Virus record (IMG/VR): IMGVR_UViG_2563366829_000019
Length of the DNA stretch: 8,258 nt
Reading direction: 5' to 3' (one strand)
From: a virus
Taxonomy: Duplodnaviria; Heunggongvirae; Uroviricota; Caudoviricetes
The notes below the pieces were generated by a model. That model worked only from the letters and a program-made list of their open reading frames with translations. It ran no database searches and was not told where the DNA came from. A program made the position numbers and the translations under genes. Positions 875-8,258 of this stretch are shown here, in pieces. Position 1 is the stretch's first letter; every line of letters begins with the position of its first letter.

Positions 875-1030
875 TTACTCCTCAGGTTCGTAAGCTGTGA
901 AGACAGCGACCTCCGTCTGGCCGGTTCGGATTCGTACCTCGCAGAGGTCTTTCCTCGTTACCAGTGCCGTCACTATGACGGTTAAACAGATGACGATCAG
1001 GGCGATTAACATCGCCTTTTGCTGCTTCAT
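875..1030 (-). CDS. hokD: Hok-family type I toxin, 51 aa (HokD/RelF-type)
   Basis: Minus-strand ORF translating to MKQQKAMLIALIVICLTVIVTALVTRKDLCEVRIRTGQTEVAVFTAYEPEE, which matches HokD (RelF) of E. coli K-12 as I recall it. AAGGAGA Shine-Dalgarno 8 nt upstream. Absent from the ORF track only because it is short. Confidence 0.85.
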   Translation of the reverse strand: MKQQKAMLIALIVICLTVIVTALVTRKDLCEVRIRTGQTEVAVFTAYEPEE

Positions 1031-1086
1031 AGCCTGCTTCTCCTTGACCTTTCGGTCCGTAAGAGGCTAATCTCTATGTGTCGCAT
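1027..1086 (-). CDS. mok-like leader ORF, 19 codons, stop overlapping the hok start (ATGA)
   Basis: Seen in sequence: ATG at 1086..1084 with GAGG 8 nt upstream, translating to MRHIEISLLRTERSRRSRL, ending in a TGA that overlaps the hok ATG. Leader resembles the plasmid R1 hok/sok leader from memory. Confidence 0.4.
   Translation of the reverse strand: MRHIEISLLRTERSRRSRL
1044..1073 (+). promoter_or_regulatory. candidate sok-like antisense promoter (TTGACC, 18-nt spacer, TAATCT)
   Basis: Seen in sequence: -35 TTGACC at 1044..1049 and -10 TAATCT at 1068..1073 on the plus strand, firing antisense across the mok-like start and Shine-Dalgarno. Confidence 0.35.
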
Positions 1087-1150
1087 AGATATGGCCTCAG
1101 ATTAATGTTAAGCGTCTTGCAGGACGCGTAATGTTAACTGGGGCTTTTCT
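1080..1150 (+). ncRNA. candidate Sok-like antisense RNA (ends approximate)
   Basis: Inferred from the promoter at 1044..1073 and full complementarity to the mok-like translation initiation region (1084..1098). A GC hairpin at 1112..1127 (GCGTC/GACGC) could be part of a terminator. Ends not defined. Confidence 0.3.
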
Positions 1151-1205
1151 CTATCTGCCTTTTGGTGTTCATGCCTGAGACAGATAGCCTCAAGCACCCG
1201 CAGTT

Positions 1206-1588: not shown

Positions 1589-2104
1589 TCATCGTAAAAC
1601 ATCCTCCACGCTTATCAGTCCATTTCGTTTCAGGTAATCTATCGCCTTCTCCGGTAATTTGCAGTCCGGCTGAGCTTTTTTCAGTTGACTGACCAGTCGT
1701 TTAACCCACATTGTTAATTCGCTAACCTGATTGCCGGATGCTGGTGGATTGTCGGCTTTACCCAGAATGGCAGCGCAGCAGGCCTCTCTGAGCACCCAGT
1801 CAACAGCATCCTTCCATGCTCCTGTTTCGACTGGCGGATTCTCACGCTTTACCTGTTCATAAAAGCGCACGGCTTTAACCAGTCCTTCTGATGTCACCGG
1901 GACTGGCGGGCCGATGAATAAGGCCTGAATTTCATAGTTCGGCCTGTCGTTACAATCCTCTTTTGTCGGTACATATTTCCAGTCACCAGCCCACGGCTTC
2001 CCCTGAAAGTCTGTAACGTCTTTTTTCACGTAGCGATATCGCCATGCAACTGGTTTTGCCTGCCCTGCCGTTTCATGCCCTTCCTGATAATTAATCTCGC
2101 TCAT
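1589..2104 (-). CDS. hypothetical prophage protein, 171 aa, Trp-rich
   Basis: Complete ORF. Its ATG (2104..2102) overlaps the stop of the upstream gene fragment (ATGA), indicating translational coupling in an operon. No family recognised. Confidence 0.6.
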   Translation of the reverse strand: MSEINYQEGHETAGQAKPVAWRYRYVKKDVTDFQGKPWAGDWKYVPTKEDCNDRPNYEIQALFIGPPVPVTSEGLVKAVRFYEQVKRENPPVETGAWKDAVDWVLREACCAAILGKADNPPASGNQVSELTMWVKRLVSQLKKAQPDCKLPEKAIDYLKRNGLISVEDVLR

Positions 2105-2258
2105 TCATCGCCCCACTCATCACAATATGCTTCGACCGGAGTTTTTCCTGCTTCATAATCATCACGCCATGCTTCAGCATCAGCAGCACTGCCACCACGT
2201 AACTCTGCATAGTCCATTAACAGTTCATGCCATGCTTCAAAACTGACGTTGTATTTAG
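2101..2258 (-). pseudogene. 3'-terminal fragment (51 codons) of a gene cut by IS5
   Basis: Seen in sequence: frame open from the IS5 boundary at 2258 down to TGA at 2103..2101, translating to ...KYNVSFEAWHELLMDYAELRGGSAADAEAWRDDYEAGKTPVEAYCDEWGDE. No start codon; the 5' part is missing. Confidence 0.5.
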
Positions 2259-3453
<1,195 letters not shown>

Positions 3454-3463
3454 TTAAAACACA

Positions 3464-5938
3464 ATGAGTAAAATCTTTATTTGCGCTGCTATTCCTGACG
3501 AACAGGCCATAAAAGAAGATAGCGCTGTTGCGGTGGCCACTGCCATTGAAGCCGGTGATGAACGTCGCGCCCGCGCAAAATTTCACTGGCAATTCCTGGA
3601 ACATTATCCGGCTGCTCAGGACTGCGCTTATAAATTTCTTGTTTGCGAGGATAAACCCGGCATACCCCGCCCTGCCCTCGATTCCTGGGATGCTGAATAT
3701 ATGCAGGAAAACCGCTGGGATGAGGAATCCGCTTCCTTTATTCCGGTCGAACCAGAATCCGATCCGATGAACGTCAATTTTGACAAGCTGTCCCTTGAAG
3801 TACAGAACGCGGTCCTGGTTAAGTTCGGTACATGTGAAAACATCACCGTTGATATGGCGATTGACGCGCAGGAATTACTGCAGGAAGACGTTGCTACCTT
3901 TGACGGGCATATCGTTGAAGCACTGATGAAAACGCCTGAAATTAACGCTATGTATCCGGAACGCAAACTGTTCGCTATCGGATGGGTTAAACACAAATGT
4001 AATCCGGGTGCCAAATGGCCAGAAATTCAGGCTGAATTACGTAACTGGAAAAAACGGCAGGACGCAGAGCGCAAAGAGACTGGAAAATACACGTCTGTTG
4101 TTGATCTCGCCCGCGCCAGAGTCAATCAACAGCACACTGAAAACTCAGCAGGAAAAATCAACCCAGTCACTGCCGCCATTTGTCGCGAATACAAGCAGAC
4201 ATGGAAAACGCTGGATGAAGAACTGGCCTACGCTCTCTGGCCTGGCGATATTGATACCGGAAACATTGACGGCAGCATCCATCGCCGGGCAAAAAATGAA
4301 GTTATCGACAAAGATCGCGAAGACTGGAAGCGCATTTCCGCATCAATGCGCAAACAACCCGATGCCGTTCGCTACGACCGTCAGACTATTTTTGGCCTTG
4401 TCCGTGAGCGTCCGATCGACATTCACAAAGATCCCGTAGCACTGAACAAATACATCACTGAATACCTGACTACCAAGGGCGTGTTTGAAGATGACGAAGG
4501 AACAAATCAGGGCACAGCTGGTACTCTCCCGTCACCAGTACCAGAAACTGATGCAGTGGAAACGGCAATGCCGGACAACGAAAAAACCGAATGCGAAGTG
4601 GAAGACGAACCATCTGTAGAGCGTGAGGGACCGTTCTACTTCCTTTTCACCGATAAGGACGGCGAAAAATACGGTCGCGCAAACAAACTTTCTGGTCTGG
4701 AAAAAGCACTGGCCCTGGGAGCTACGGAAATCACAAAAGAGGAATACTTCGCACGTAAAAACGGCACGTACTCAGGTTCACAACAAAATACTGGTGCATC
4801 TGACACGATCGCACAACCAGAGCCGGTAAAAGTTACCGCTGACGAAGTAAACAAAATTATGCAGGCAGCCAATATCAGCCAGCCTGACGCCAATAAGTTG
4901 CTTGCTGTATCACGTGGTGAATTTGTTGCAGGGATTAGCGACCCGAATGATCCGAAATGGGTGAAGGGGATTGAAACCCGCGATTCAGTGAATCAGAACC
5001 AGCAAGAAACGGAACAGAACGGCCAGAAAGCGGAACAAAACAGCCCAAATGCGTTACAAAACGAGCCAGAAACGAAACATCCTGAACCAGTGGCGCAACA
5101 GGAAGTGGAAAAAGTCTGCACCGCCTGCGGTCAGACCGGCGGCGGCAACTACCCTGATTGTGGCGCGGTGATGGGCGACGCAACATACCAGGAAACATTC
5201 GATGAAGAGTATCAGGTTGAAGTTCAGGAAGATGATCCGGAGGAAATGGAAGGCGCTGAACATCCACACAAGGAGAACACTGGCGGCAATCAGCATCACG
5301 ATAGCGATAATGAAACTGGCGAGACGGCAGATCACTCAATTAAGGTGAACGGTCATCAAGAAATCACATCCACCAGCAGGACGTGTGACCATCTAATGAT
5401 CGACCTTGAAACCATGGGAAAAAATCCTGATGCCCCGATCATCTCAATAGGTGCAATATTTTTCGATCCGCAAACCGGAGATATGGGACCGGAATTTAGT
5501 AAGACTATCGATCTGGAAACTGCTGGCGGAGTCATTGATCGGGACACCATTAAATGGTGGCTTAAGCAATCACGCGAAGCGCAATCTGCCATTATGACCG
5601 ATGAAATCCCGTTAGATGATGCACTGTTACAATTGCGGGAATTTATCGACGAAAACTCCGGTGAATTTTTTGTTCAGGTCTGGGGAAATGGAGCCAACTT
5701 CGACAACACGATTTTGCGCCGTTCATACGAACGGCAGGGGATCCCCTGCCCGTGGCGTTACTACAACGATCGCGATGTACGCACAATCGTTGAGCTGGGG
5801 AAAGCCATAGACTTCGATGCCAGAACGGCTATTCCATTCGAAGGTGAGCGCCATAATGCACTTGATGACGCTCGTTACCAGGCAAAATACGTTTCAGCTA
5901 TCTGGCAAAAACTGATCCCGAGTCAGGCTGATTTTTAA
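3464..5938 (+). CDS. RecE-like protein with a C-terminal DEDDh-type 3'-5' exonuclease domain (annotated in prophages as exodeoxyribonuclease VIII)
   Basis: Central region shares motifs I recall from E. coli RecE (KLLAVSRGEFVAGISDPNDPKWVKGIETRD; CTACGQTGGGNYPDCGAVMGDATYQETF). The last ~190 aa carry DnaQ-like exonuclease motifs (IDLETMG, WGNGANFD, HNALDDARY). No Shine-Dalgarno in the 10 bp between IS5 and the ATG. Confidence 0.8.
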   Translation: MSKIFICAAIPDEQAIKEDSAVAVATAIEAGDERRARAKFHWQFLEHYPAAQDCAYKFLVCEDKPGIPRPALDSWDAEYMQENRWDEESASFIPVEPESDPMNVNFDKLSLEVQNAVLVKFGTCENITVDMAIDAQELLQEDVATFDGHIVEALMKTPEINAMYPERKLFAIGWVKHKCNPGAKWPEIQAELRNWKKRQDAERKETGKYTSVVDLARARVNQQHTENSAGKINPVTAAICREYKQTWKTLDEELAYALWPGDIDTGNIDGSIHRRAKNEVIDKDREDWKRISASMRKQPDAVRYDRQTIFGLVRERPIDIHKDPVALNKYITEYLTTKGVFEDDEGTNQGTAGTLPSPVPETDAVETAMPDNEKTECEVEDEPSVEREGPFYFLFTDKDGEKYGRANKLSGLEKALALGATEITKEEYFARKNGTYSGSQQNTGASDTIAQPEPVKVTADEVNKIMQAANISQPDANKLLAVSRGEFVAGISDPNDPKWVKGIETRDSVNQNQQETEQNGQKAEQNSPNALQNEPETKHPEPVAQQEVEKVCTACGQTGGGNYPDCGAVMGDATYQETFDEEYQVEVQEDDPEEMEGAEHPHKENTGGNQHHDSDNETGETADHSIKVNGHQEITSTSRTCDHLMIDLETMGKNPDAPIISIGAIFFDPQTGDMGPEFSKTIDLETAGGVIDRDTIKWWLKQSREAQSAIMTDEIPLDDALLQLREFIDENSGEFFVQVWGNGANFDNTILRRSYERQGIPCPWRYYNDRDVRTIVELGKAIDFDARTAIPFEGERHNALDDARYQAKYVSAIWQKLIPSQADF

Positions 5939-5953
5939 TGTTCAACCCTAATT

Positions 5954-5979
5954 GCCGCTAACCGTATATAGTTAGCGGC
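5954..5979. repeat. perfect inverted repeat / hairpin GCCGCTAAC-N8-GTTAGCGGC
   Basis: Seen in sequence between the RecE-like stop and the xis-like start; 9-bp arms with an 8-nt spacer (CGTATATA). Not followed by a T-run. Confidence 0.45.
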
Positions 5980-5996
5980 GGTTATGAGATATAGCT

Positions 5997-6200
5997 ATGA
6001 GCAGCTTATTTTTAACCGAAGATGAATTGCTAATATTAACGGGCTGCAAATATGCAAGCCACCAGCGAAAATGGTTAATGGAAAACGGGCTTCCGTTCTA
6101 TACCAATCGTAGTGGCAAACCGATTGTCAGCCGGGATCTATTTACCTGCAATAAAACTTTACCACCACGCGAGGTAGAGCCGAATTTTGGTGCGATCTGA
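5997..6200 (+). CDS. small Xis-like protein, 67 aa (DUF4224-like by recollection)
   Basis: Sits directly upstream of int and its stop overlaps the int ATG (TGATG). Size, position and the N-terminal LTEDELLILTG motif fit small excisionase-like proteins paired with integrases. Confidence 0.5.
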   Translation: MSSLFLTEDELLILTGCKYASHQRKWLMENGLPFYTNRSGKPIVSRDLFTCNKTLPPREVEPNFGAI

Positions 6201-7225
6201 TGGGAAGACGAAGGAAAAATCCTGAACACGAAAAATTACCTCCAAATGTATACCCAAATAAATATAGTTATGTATGGAAACCAACATCCAGAGAATCTGT
6301 CACACTAACCGCCATCAAGGATGGTTTAGCTGCTTTATGGAAAAAGTATGAGGAAACTGTAAATAATCGCGATCGTGCAATGACATTCGGTCGCTTGTGG
6401 GAAAAATTCCTCGCCAGCGCCTGTTACAGTGACCTTAGTCCAAGAACACAAAAAGATTATCTGCAACATCAAAAAAAGTTGCTTGCCGTATTCGGTAAGG
6501 TACCAGCGGATTCCATAAAACCAGAACACATCCGTCGATACATGGACAAAAGAGGGGAGCAGAGTAAAACGCAAGCCAACCATGAAAAAAGCAGTATGTC
6601 CCGTGTTTACAGTTGGGGGTATGAGCGAGGGTACGTCAAGGCTAACCCATGTGCAGGTGTAAGTAAATTCAAGGCCAAAAACCGCGAACGATATGTAACC
6701 GACAAAGAATACCAGGCAGTATTAAGCGTTGCACCTCTTCCTGTTTTTATCGCAATGGAAATTGCCTATCTGTGTGCAGCGAGGGTTTCCGATGTGTTAT
6801 CGCTGAAATGGGAACAGATTGGAAACGACGGGATATTCATCCAGCAAGGGAAAACCGGAAAAAAACAGATAAAAGCATGGAGTCCACGATTACAGGCAGC
6901 GATCGAAAAAGCAAAACAGTTACCAAAATCTGCCTATGTGATCAGCAATCAATACGGCAACCGATATATGTACAAAGGCTTTAACGAAATGTGGGTAGAA
7001 GCAAGAAATCGTGCTGGAAAAATTTCAGGTATTTTAACCGACTTCACCTTTCATGATCTGAAGGCGAAAGGAATTTCAGACTATGAAGGAAGCAGCCGGG
7101 ATAAGCAACTTTTCTCTGGTCACAAAACCGAAGGGCAAGTGCTAATCTATGACAGGAAGGTTAAAGTTTCACCAACACTTGATGTCCCGTTACCTGAAAA
7201 TATTCCAAGAAAATATTCCAAGTAA
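6200..7225 (+). CDS. int: lambda-family tyrosine integrase
   Basis: 341 aa. Aligns by eye to the lambda Int catalytic region: Arg in ARVSDVLSLKWEQI, Lys in QGKTGKK, His in GHKTEG, Tyr in LIYDRK. The HxxR box reads H-D-L-K. Lies next to the 3' end of the tRNA. Confidence 0.85.
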   Translation: MGRRRKNPEHEKLPPNVYPNKYSYVWKPTSRESVTLTAIKDGLAALWKKYEETVNNRDRAMTFGRLWEKFLASACYSDLSPRTQKDYLQHQKKLLAVFGKVPADSIKPEHIRRYMDKRGEQSKTQANHEKSSMSRVYSWGYERGYVKANPCAGVSKFKAKNRERYVTDKEYQAVLSVAPLPVFIAMEIAYLCAARVSDVLSLKWEQIGNDGIFIQQGKTGKKQIKAWSPRLQAAIEKAKQLPKSAYVISNQYGNRYMYKGFNEMWVEARNRAGKISGILTDFTFHDLKAKGISDYEGSSRDKQLFSGHKTEGQVLIYDRKVKVSPTLDVPLPENIPRKYSK

Positions 7226-7232
7226 TTCCAAG
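7202..7232. repeat. three copies of ATTCCAAG (last two in tandem at 10-bp spacing) across the int 3' end
   Basis: Seen in sequence: ATTCCAAG at 7202..7209, 7215..7222 and 7225..7232, about 50 bp from the tRNA 3' end. Position fits integrase arm-type binding sites. Confidence 0.35.
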
Positions 7233-7277
7233 TGTGATTTTTGTCACTGACTTAATGATGTGTAAGTGATTGAATTT

Positions 7278-7367
7278 TGGCGGAGAGAGGGGGATTTGAA
7301 CCCCCGGTGGAGTTGCCCCCACTCCGGTTTTCGAGACCGGTCCGTTCAGCCGCTCCGGCATCTCTCC
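7278..7367 (-). tRNA. serU: tRNA-Ser (anticodon CGA)
   Basis: Reverse complement folds as a 90-nt class II tRNA: acceptor stem GGAGAGA/TCTCTCC, anticodon stem CCGGT/ACCGG with loop CU-CGA-AA, long variable arm GTGGGG-GCAA-CTCCAC, T-arm GGGGG-TTCAAAT-CCCCC, 3' CCA encoded. Confidence 0.9.
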
Positions 7368-7460
7368 GTTCAGATGGTTGCCATGATGCCAGGAAATTTG
7401 GCATTTTAACAGTCCCTGTCCGTGCAATTTTGTTCAAGTGACGAGTTTGCGAGCAAAACG

Positions 7461-8258
7461 ATGATTAAGTGGCCCTGGAAAGTACAAGAATCAGCACATC
7501 AAACTGCCCTTCCCTGGCAGGAAGCACTATCGATCCCCCTTTTAACGTGTCTGACAGAACAGGAACAAAGCAAATTGGTCGCTCTTGCCGAACGTTTTTT
7601 ACAGCAAAAACGGCTTGTTCCTTTACAGGGCTTTGAGCTGAATTCATTAAGAAGCTGCCGGATAGCACTTCTATTTTGCCTGCCCGTTCTGGAGTTAGGA
7701 CTGGAATGGCTGGATGGTTTTCATGAAGTCTTAATTTATCCTGCGCCATTTGTGGTCGATGATGAATGGGAAGACGATATCGGTCTGGTGCATAACCAAC
7801 GTATTGTTCAGTCAGGTCAGAGCTGGCAGCAAGGGCCTATCGTTTTGAACTGGTTGGATATACAAGATTCTTTTGATGCTTCTGGTTTTAACCTGATTAT
7901 TCATGAAGTCGCTCATAAGCTGGACACCCGTAACGGCGATCGCGCCAGCGGAGTTCCCTTTATTTCGTTGCGTGAGGTTGCTGGCTGGGAACACGATCTT
8001 CATGCTGCAATGAACAACATTCAGGAAGAAATCGAATTAGTTGGTGAGAATGCGGCGAGCATTGATGCTTATGCTGCCAGTGATCCTGCTGAATGTTTTG
8101 CCGTACTTTCTGAATATTTCTTTAGCGCCCCAGAACTTTTTGCTCCTCGTTTCCCTTCATTGTGGCAACGTTTCTGTCAATTTTATCAACAAGATCCTTT
8201 GCAGAGACTGCATCACGCTAATGATACAGACTCGTTTTCGGCGACGAATGTTCATTAA
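7461..8258 (+). CDS. mtfA: MtfA (Mlc titration factor A, YeeI), 265 aa
   Basis: Product [24 protein letters not shown]...DSFSATNVH matches MtfA as recalled. Start taken at the internal ATG (7461), not the track's 7422, to give the 265-aa form. Stop is the last codon of the window. Confidence 0.9.

Follow-up and report, generated by a model that had tools for sequence, protein, structure and literature searches.

A prophage protein of the RecE/YdfE type with a DexA-family DEDDh exonuclease domain in place of the RecE nuclease

The RecET system is a mainstay of recombineering, but no function has been assigned to the large part of RecE outside the nuclease. True RecE carries an Exonuc_VIII domain (PF06630) at its N terminus and a PD-(D/E)XK nuclease at its C terminus, and its gene is followed by recT; many lambdoid prophages of Escherichia coli have no recombination pair of the Red or RecET type. 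A different arrangement is found in a stretch of 8,258 nucleotides from a virus of the class Caudoviricetes (IMG/VR record IMGVR_UViG_2563366829_000019; hereafter, the window), where a complete open reading frame (ORF; positions 3464–5938) encodes a RecE-related protein with a DEDDh-type exonuclease domain at its C terminus. The gene most likely encodes a DNA 3'-end exonuclease of an early leftward operon that acts without an annealase, a reading in which our confidence is about even.

The studied enzymes nearest to the exonuclease domain are DexA of phage T4 and its homolog EcD. DexA is a DNA 3'-5' exonuclease that serves in the scavenging of host DNA and in the repair of double-strand breaks during intron homing (PMC12153337). 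EcD ("HREX"; HAK9828821.1), a standalone protein of E. coli, cuts only DNA containing 5-hydroxymethylcytosine (5hmC) and, when plasmid-borne, protects against T4 (PMC12153337). The N-terminal part of the protein has its namesake in ydfE, a pseudogene in the Qin prophage of E. coli K-12, after which the Pfam domains YdfE_N and YdfE_C were named. The modules of the window protein are as follows (aa, amino acids).

3464–5938, plus strand: complete ORF of a modular prophage "exonuclease", 824 aa, PHROG 2082
3464–4183, plus strand: N-terminal head, aa 1–240, YdfE_N type (PF27430)
4184–4492, plus strand: shared helical core, aa 241–343 (YdfE_C, PF27432)
4493–4873, plus strand: acidic linker, aa 344–470, mostly of low confidence in the predicted structure
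4874–5353, plus strand: RecE-like middle segment, aa 471–630
4934–4972, plus strand: ISDPNDPKWVKGI, inside the RecE-like middle segment
5117–5164, plus strand: zinc-ribbon-like CTAC...YPDC, inside the RecE-like middle segment
5390–5905, plus strand: DEDDh 3'-5' exonuclease domain, aa 643–814 (PF16473, DexA/Rv2179c family)
5396–5419, plus strand: Exo I of the DEDDh domain
5687–5716, plus strand: Exo II of the DEDDh domain
5852–5881, plus strand: Exo III of the DEDDh domain

The C-terminal domain matches the Rv2179c-like DEDDh 3'-5' exonucleases (PF16473) with an E value of 1.6e-67 (227.1 bits against a cut-off of 27) in an alignment that spans positions 2–177 of the 177 positions of the profile; it is the sole curated Pfam domain matched by the protein. 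Its Exo I (MIDLETMG; D647, E649), Exo II (NGANFDNTIL; D747), and Exo III (HNALDDARYQ; H797, D802) motifs contribute five residues that align with the catalytic D7, E9, D119, H186, and D191 of T4 DexA. A preliminary description of this DNA, made from its letters alone, had placed DnaQ-like Exo I–III motifs where RecE has its nuclease, and this proved correct: domain searches for a PD-(D/E)XK fold (PF12684-like; PDB 3H4R) matched nothing in the window protein, neither in Pfam nor among PDB sequences, and the C terminus is instead formed by a DEDDh domain whose catalytic residues are all present. Judged by its sequence, the protein belongs both to the DexA/Rv2179c family of DEDDh exonucleases and to the YdfE family (PHROG 2082), whose profile (phrog_2082) covers it over its whole length (aa 1–824 against positions 1–823 of 823).

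The family name PF16473 derives from the exoribonuclease Rv2179c of Mycobacterium tuberculosis, and the domain might accordingly be an RNA 3'-5' exonuclease (of the Rv2179c type or the ISG20-like "TONDO" type) that trims RNAs of the phage or the host, perhaps the very dicF-dicB transcript that encodes it, or else the 3' termini of RNA phages. PGAP assigns the name "3'-5' exoribonuclease" to some copies, and in intact relatives DicF, a small RNA that matures by processing, is encoded a few hundred bases upstream of the gene. Moreover, mobile elements encode DEDDh exonucleases with auxiliary domains that provide defence against RNA phages (PMC13344964). Nevertheless, this alternative is improbable: the only match of the domain among PDB sequences is the DNA exonuclease DexA (8KEL/8KEN; E value 1e-6), with no chain of Rv2179c among the matches, and the two other cassettes found on this scaffold, the nuclease of RecE and a Rad52-like annealase (see below), are both proteins of DNA recombination. 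The TONDO enzymes, whose genes are stated to be distinct from other DEDDh domains (PMC13344964), are ISG20-like, of the RNase_T type (PF00929), a profile that reaches only 22.3 bits on the window domain (cut-off, 24), for which PF16473 is the best family.

A DNA exonuclease, the preferred reading, also has a close counterpart in EcD. A 189-aa EcD-like ORF, recovered from viral contigs by means of the published EcD primers, has an alanine at position 78, matching the paper, and its product is 38% identical to the window domain over its whole length (E value 1e-37). The primers matched exactly, save that the printed reverse primer contains one additional A. The standalone ORF is located at positions 2070–2636 (minus strand) of contig L010 and is present also in the viral contigs L015, L025, L028, and L031; no copy with more than 60% identity was found in the phage genome collection, where the best match (46%) was from a Klebsiella phage. 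The EcD-like protein retains Trp and Glu at the positions of W152 and D169, the residues of DexA proposed to recognize 5hmC; in the window protein these positions are occupied by Tyr767 and Lys780, with an uncertain alignment in the loop of D169. Since the equivalents of W152 and D169 are not kept, specificity for 5hmC cannot be assumed for the window domain. For the tetramer-forming aspartate (D90 in DexA; Ala78 in EcD), the two alignments differ: MAFFT places an aspartate of the window protein in that column and an alanine one residue on, whereas a pairwise BLAST comparison places the alanine opposite Ala78 of the EcD-like protein. An assignment of the window protein to HREX/EcD was rejected, given its different architecture and the lack of conservation of the proposed recognition residues.

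The similarity to EcD nonetheless makes it conceivable that the protein is an exclusion or defence nuclease that degrades the DNA of superinfecting phages, such as the hydroxymethylcytosine DNA of T-even phages, to the benefit of the lysogen or the induced cell. dicB, a gene of the same operon, is reported to protect K-12 from some phages. The protection by plasmid-borne EcD and its restriction to 5hmC DNA (PMC12153337) point in the same direction, as do the distribution data: Escherichia accounts for 38% of the bacteria with DexA homologs (PMC12153337), and the family of the window protein is present in 4,800 of 5,426 complete E. coli genomes. K-12 is stated to lack DexA homologs (PMC12153337), which is explained by the interruption of its ydfE by IS2 ahead of the DEDDh domain. 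We consider a role in defence possible but unlikely, because the recognition residues are replaced, EcD is not the tail of a RecE-type scaffold, and the PADLOC defence models gave only a weak match of the generic DEDDh type (CRISPR-associated; E value 1.4e-5). In addition, a lysogen would be expected to keep the gene off, since it belongs to an early operon under repressor control and lacks a separate promoter-like site.

The relationship to RecE is restricted to part of the protein. In a BLASTP comparison with RecE of Rac-SA53, aa 262–622 can be aligned (E value 7e-64), with strong conservation from about aa 477 to 622, and the middle segment shares approximately 84% DNA identity with recE. 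The NCBIfam equivalog for RecE (NF007259) scores 275.8 bits against a cut-off of 1269, with its best stretch limited to model positions 440–602. The RecE-like motifs mentioned in the preliminary description are therefore present in the middle of the protein but not in its first approximately 240 residues, which are of the YdfE_N type: PF06630 has no match in the window protein, and aa 1–256 are 86.7% identical to the Qin pseudogene ydfE of K-12. Both YdfE assignments (PF27430 and PF27432) come from precomputed matches on proteins 98–100% identical to the window protein. The RecE proteins of Rac-SA53 and HK225 do match PF12684 at their C termini. An identity as RecE/exodeoxyribonuclease VIII was rejected; four of the five defining features fail, and only the shared middle region is present. 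In its predicted structure, the N-terminal head begins with an alpha/beta part and continues with a helical one, and the search for structural relatives of the predicted model yielded none that was informative.

Within the middle segment, the CxxC...CxxC stretch claimed earlier is found in its first half (CTAC), whereas the second half reads YPDC, with Tyr563 (codon TAC, positions 5150–5152) in the place of the third cysteine of the family. The substitution is a property of the allele group of the window; RecE and all more divergent alleles listed have CPDC. Tyr563 may mean that a widespread allele no longer binds metal. The counts of Cys and Tyr at this position stem from a first homolog search with aa 1–360, which returned mostly near-identical E. 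coli fragments and was used for this purpose only, not to assess diversity.

The C-terminal domains of this family are exchangeable. A search with aa 1–360 against 1.84 billion cluster representatives retrieved only 178 clusters, and mapping of domains on the long family members by local phmmer revealed two types of heads (YdfE_N or the RecE head PF06630), a shared helical core (aa 241–343) that occurs with or without pieces of the linker (aa 344–470, partly conserved across the family), and three C-terminal cassettes, namely the DEDDh exonuclease, the PD-(D/E)XK nuclease of RecE, and a Rad52-like domain of approximately 300 aa. The core is common to the relatives with each of the three tails, and all six combinations of head and tail were found among the cluster representatives. 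Some DEDDh-tailed relatives also have the RecE N-terminal domain PF06630; in phage vB_EcoS-640R1, a RecE-type head is joined to a middle and a DEDDh tail that are both nearly identical to those of the window protein. The nuclease-domain swap suggested in the preliminary description is thus well founded, since the same heads and core carry the RecE nuclease elsewhere, each time with RecT as the next gene (5 of 5 loci).

The third cassette, typified by gp07 of Pectobacterium phage ZF40, is a Rad52-like annealase, as indicated by its consensus, which includes KKSLTDAIKKALSxLGFSADV, by weak matches to Pfam Rad52_Rad22 in 7 of 20 members (best E value, 0.017), and by the fold of one member (P0254), for which the top 25 matches of its AlphaFold2 model in a Foldseek search of the PDB were human RAD52 (probability 0.98–1.00; E values from 1.5e-3), followed by yeast Rad52. 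A profile search of this cassette against PDB sequences gave no match. Proteins of this type (ZF40 gp07 at L005 3974–6139, L006 3869–6001, and P0254) are labelled "exonuclease" or "exodeoxyribonuclease VIII-like" in databases, and these labels look wrong. Since the third tail is Rad52-like, the scaffold remains suggestive of a general connection with DNA recombination or the metabolism of DNA ends.

Exchange has also taken place recently. Between the window gene and its homolog in phage Tritos (L002 9001–11472), synonymous divergence is 0.56 in the head and declines along the gene to 0.02 in the DEDDh domain, which makes the gene a recombinational mosaic and indicates that exchange within it was recent. 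The likely crossover point is the conserved middle segment, which recE also has. All regions are under purifying selection, with ratios of nonsynonymous to synonymous divergence (dN/dS) of 0.12–0.42 relative to Tritos.

The cassettes differ also in their partner genes, which were compared at 13 loci.

PD-(D/E)XK loci (Rac-SA53, HK225, P0127, P0217, P0256): next gene RecT, 5 of 5
DEDDh loci (L001, Tritos, PPompW, vB_EcoS-640R1, P0218, P0223): xis/int directly, RecT at 0 of 6
Rad52-like loci (ZF40, BUCT708): next gene a Sipho_Gp157 protein, RecT at 0 of 2

L001 is the intact prophage of strain LC-1302-2020 and the intact counterpart of the window, and P0218 and P0223 are more distant DEDDh-tailed relatives; the look for a recT next to the gene in intact relatives that the preliminary description called for thus came out negative at all six loci. 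In the window itself, the genes that follow, previously described as xis and int, are these.

5997–6200, plus strand: DUF4224 protein of 67 aa in the position of the excisionase
6200–7225, plus strand: tyrosine integrase, ORF of 341 aa

The gene sits where Rac and HK225 have recE-recT, immediately before xis-int in the leftward operon. Together with the fact that RecE and the Rad52-like annealase fusions share its scaffold, this position would be compatible with RecET-like recombination that relies on an annealase from another gene of the phage or from the host, or on one hidden in the N-terminal scaffold of the protein itself. Such a scenario is very unlikely. A 3'-5' exonuclease produces 5' overhangs, not the 3' tails that load RecT or Red-beta (PMC11611040). 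RecT is absent next to all DEDDh-tailed genes, none of the 56 genes in the complete genome of phage Tritos is annotated as an annealase, and no Rad52-, RecT-, or ERF-like fold was seen in the N-terminal model.

The preferred reading, an annealase-independent DNA 3'-end exonuclease, can be framed as follows. The YdfE_N head, the YdfE_C core, and the acidic linker with its zinc-ribbon-like motif would form a scaffold shared with RecE, to which the C-terminal effector is attached as an exchangeable cassette, in the window protein a putative metal-dependent DEDDh 3'-5' exonuclease of the T4 DexA type. In intact relatives, the gene is part of a repressor-controlled leftward early operon (dicA ... 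dicF-dicB-ydfD-gene-xis-int), and induction or infection would lead to its transcription, along with dicF-dicB-ydfD-...-xis-int, from the leftward promoter that the repressor controls. The protein would then remove nucleotides from DNA 3' ends and might act in recombination or end processing through host functions, or simply in the trimming or degradation of ends, in the manner of DexA in the repair of double-strand breaks in T4. Because 5' overhangs would be left behind and a RecT, Red-beta, or Rad52-type protein is missing, single-strand annealing of the RecET or Red style is not expected; the earlier statement that the role is probably not RecET-style recombination is in line with this polarity and gene content.

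Several observations weigh against a phage-encoded DNA exonuclease of this kind. Literature searches retrieved no study of, or experiment on, the window protein or any full-length relative; the name of the Pfam family allows for RNA as a substrate; and EcD, the nearest characterized relative in E. coli, is reported to be a nuclease of anti-T4 defence, not an enzyme of phage replication or recombination. Furthermore, many copies are pseudogenes (ydfE of K-12, the frameshifted genes of the PPompW phages, and the copy in the window), which indicates that the host does not require the gene and that the prophage, perhaps in many cases, does not either.

The copy in the window illustrates such decay. 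Positions 1–2258 and 3454–8258 are collinear with the intact prophage of strain LC-1302-2020, from which the right segment (3454–8258) differs only by a synonymous change at position 5530; the same change is all that separates the exonuclease ORF from that of WP_001555072.1 (NZ_CP091756.1). Between the two segments lies an insertion sequence, and the prophage is delimited by a tRNA gene.

2259–3453, minus strand: IS5, 1,195 bp (transposase, 2405–3385)
7278–7367, minus strand: tRNA-Ser(CGA), prophage/chromosome junction next to mtfA

IS5 takes the place of 8.1 kb that comprise replication genes, regulators of the cro/cI type, Rha, dicB, ydfD, and the promoter region of the operon. Its 4-bp flanks are unequal (TTAG at 2255–2258, TTAA at 3454–3457), which indicates a deletion rather than a simple insertion. 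The element ends 10 bp ahead of the ATG of the exonuclease gene, and the native GAGG Shine-Dalgarno sequence, located just left of the IS5 junction in the intact prophage, is gone from the window; no sigma-70-like promoter site was found in the region 3100–6300. Because the promoter region and the Shine-Dalgarno sequence were lost with IS5 and the 8.1-kb deletion, this copy of the gene is probably silent and part of a decaying prophage, although its ORF is intact. The integrase gene has DNA identical to that of a gene in NZ_CP091756.1 flagged by RefSeq as a frameshifted pseudogene, and the prophage may be unable to excise. The left segment contains a toxin-antitoxin module of the hok/sok type (875–1199, minus strand), which consists of an ORF for a HokD-like protein of 51 aa (875–1030) and a sok antisense RNA (1028–1199; Rfam RF01794, 106.7 bits), and an ORF of 171 aa (1589–2104, minus strand) without a Pfam match, which is annotated as hypothetical in the intact prophage.

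The gene itself is abundant and already annotated and hence not new. The rarity implied by the preliminary description does not stand, as the gene is catalogued and matched in the 4,800 E. coli genomes mentioned above, with at least 80% of its length in 3,511 of them and a median of two places per genome. RefSeq uses the names "exonuclease" or "3'-5' exonuclease". Isolated phages with the gene include Tritos, mEp460, HannyBb, the PPompW phages, and others, where it is often labelled "exodeoxyribonuclease VIII", a common label that is wrong for DEDDh-tailed genes. By contrast, we have not found a description of the three-cassette pattern on the RecE/YdfE scaffold or of the strict association of RecT with the PD-(D/E)XK cassette.

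That one scaffold carries a 5'-3' nuclease, a 3'-5' nuclease, or an annealase, with RecT only after the first, provides a handle on the function of the scaffold, and so abundant a DEDDh gene could serve the phage or the host, its nearest characterized relative having recently been proposed as an anti-T4 defence. More speculatively, the RecE/YdfE scaffold might be a general platform that brings interchangeable DNA-end effectors to one target; the effector could be a 5'-3' nuclease paired with RecT, a Rad52-like annealase fused to the scaffold, or a 3'-5' exonuclease of the DexA type. If so, the DEDDh version would represent an undescribed annealase-independent phage pathway, a tentative idea that we rate as rather doubtful. 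By destroying 3' tails, such a pathway could redirect or prevent recombination by the host and the action of defences that sense DNA ends; alternatively, it could serve to keep out competing phages.

Compared with known systems, the window protein resembles Rac RecE in the slot of its gene, directly upstream of xis-int in the leftward early operon, and in the helical core (aa 241–343), the ISDPNDPKW motif, and the zinc-ribbon-like motif. It differs from RecE in its N-terminal 240 aa (YdfE_N instead of a PF06630 head), in its C terminus (a DEDDh 3'-5' exonuclease instead of a 5'-3' PD-(D/E)XK nuclease), and in the absence of the neighboring recT. The ydfE gene of K-12 (b1577, L037 6079–6999) is orthologous and belongs to the same operon (dicA-ydfABC-dicF-dicB-ydfD-ydfE-...-intQ), but it is cut by IS2 after approximately 256 aa and lacks linker and exonuclease, whereas the ORF in the window is complete. 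Proteins of the ZF40 gp07 type share the head, the core, and the operon slot, but they end in the Rad52-like domain with a long coiled coil behind it, and a Sipho_Gp157 protein is encoded by the next gene. EcD is a standalone protein of 189 aa, whereas the window version is the tail of a scaffold protein. T4 DexA belongs to the same DEDDh subfamily (PF16473) and has all five catalytic residues in common with the window domain, at 26% identity, but it is a standalone enzyme of 227 aa with extra loops from a lytic phage, whereas the domain in the window forms the C-terminal end of an 824-aa prophage protein.

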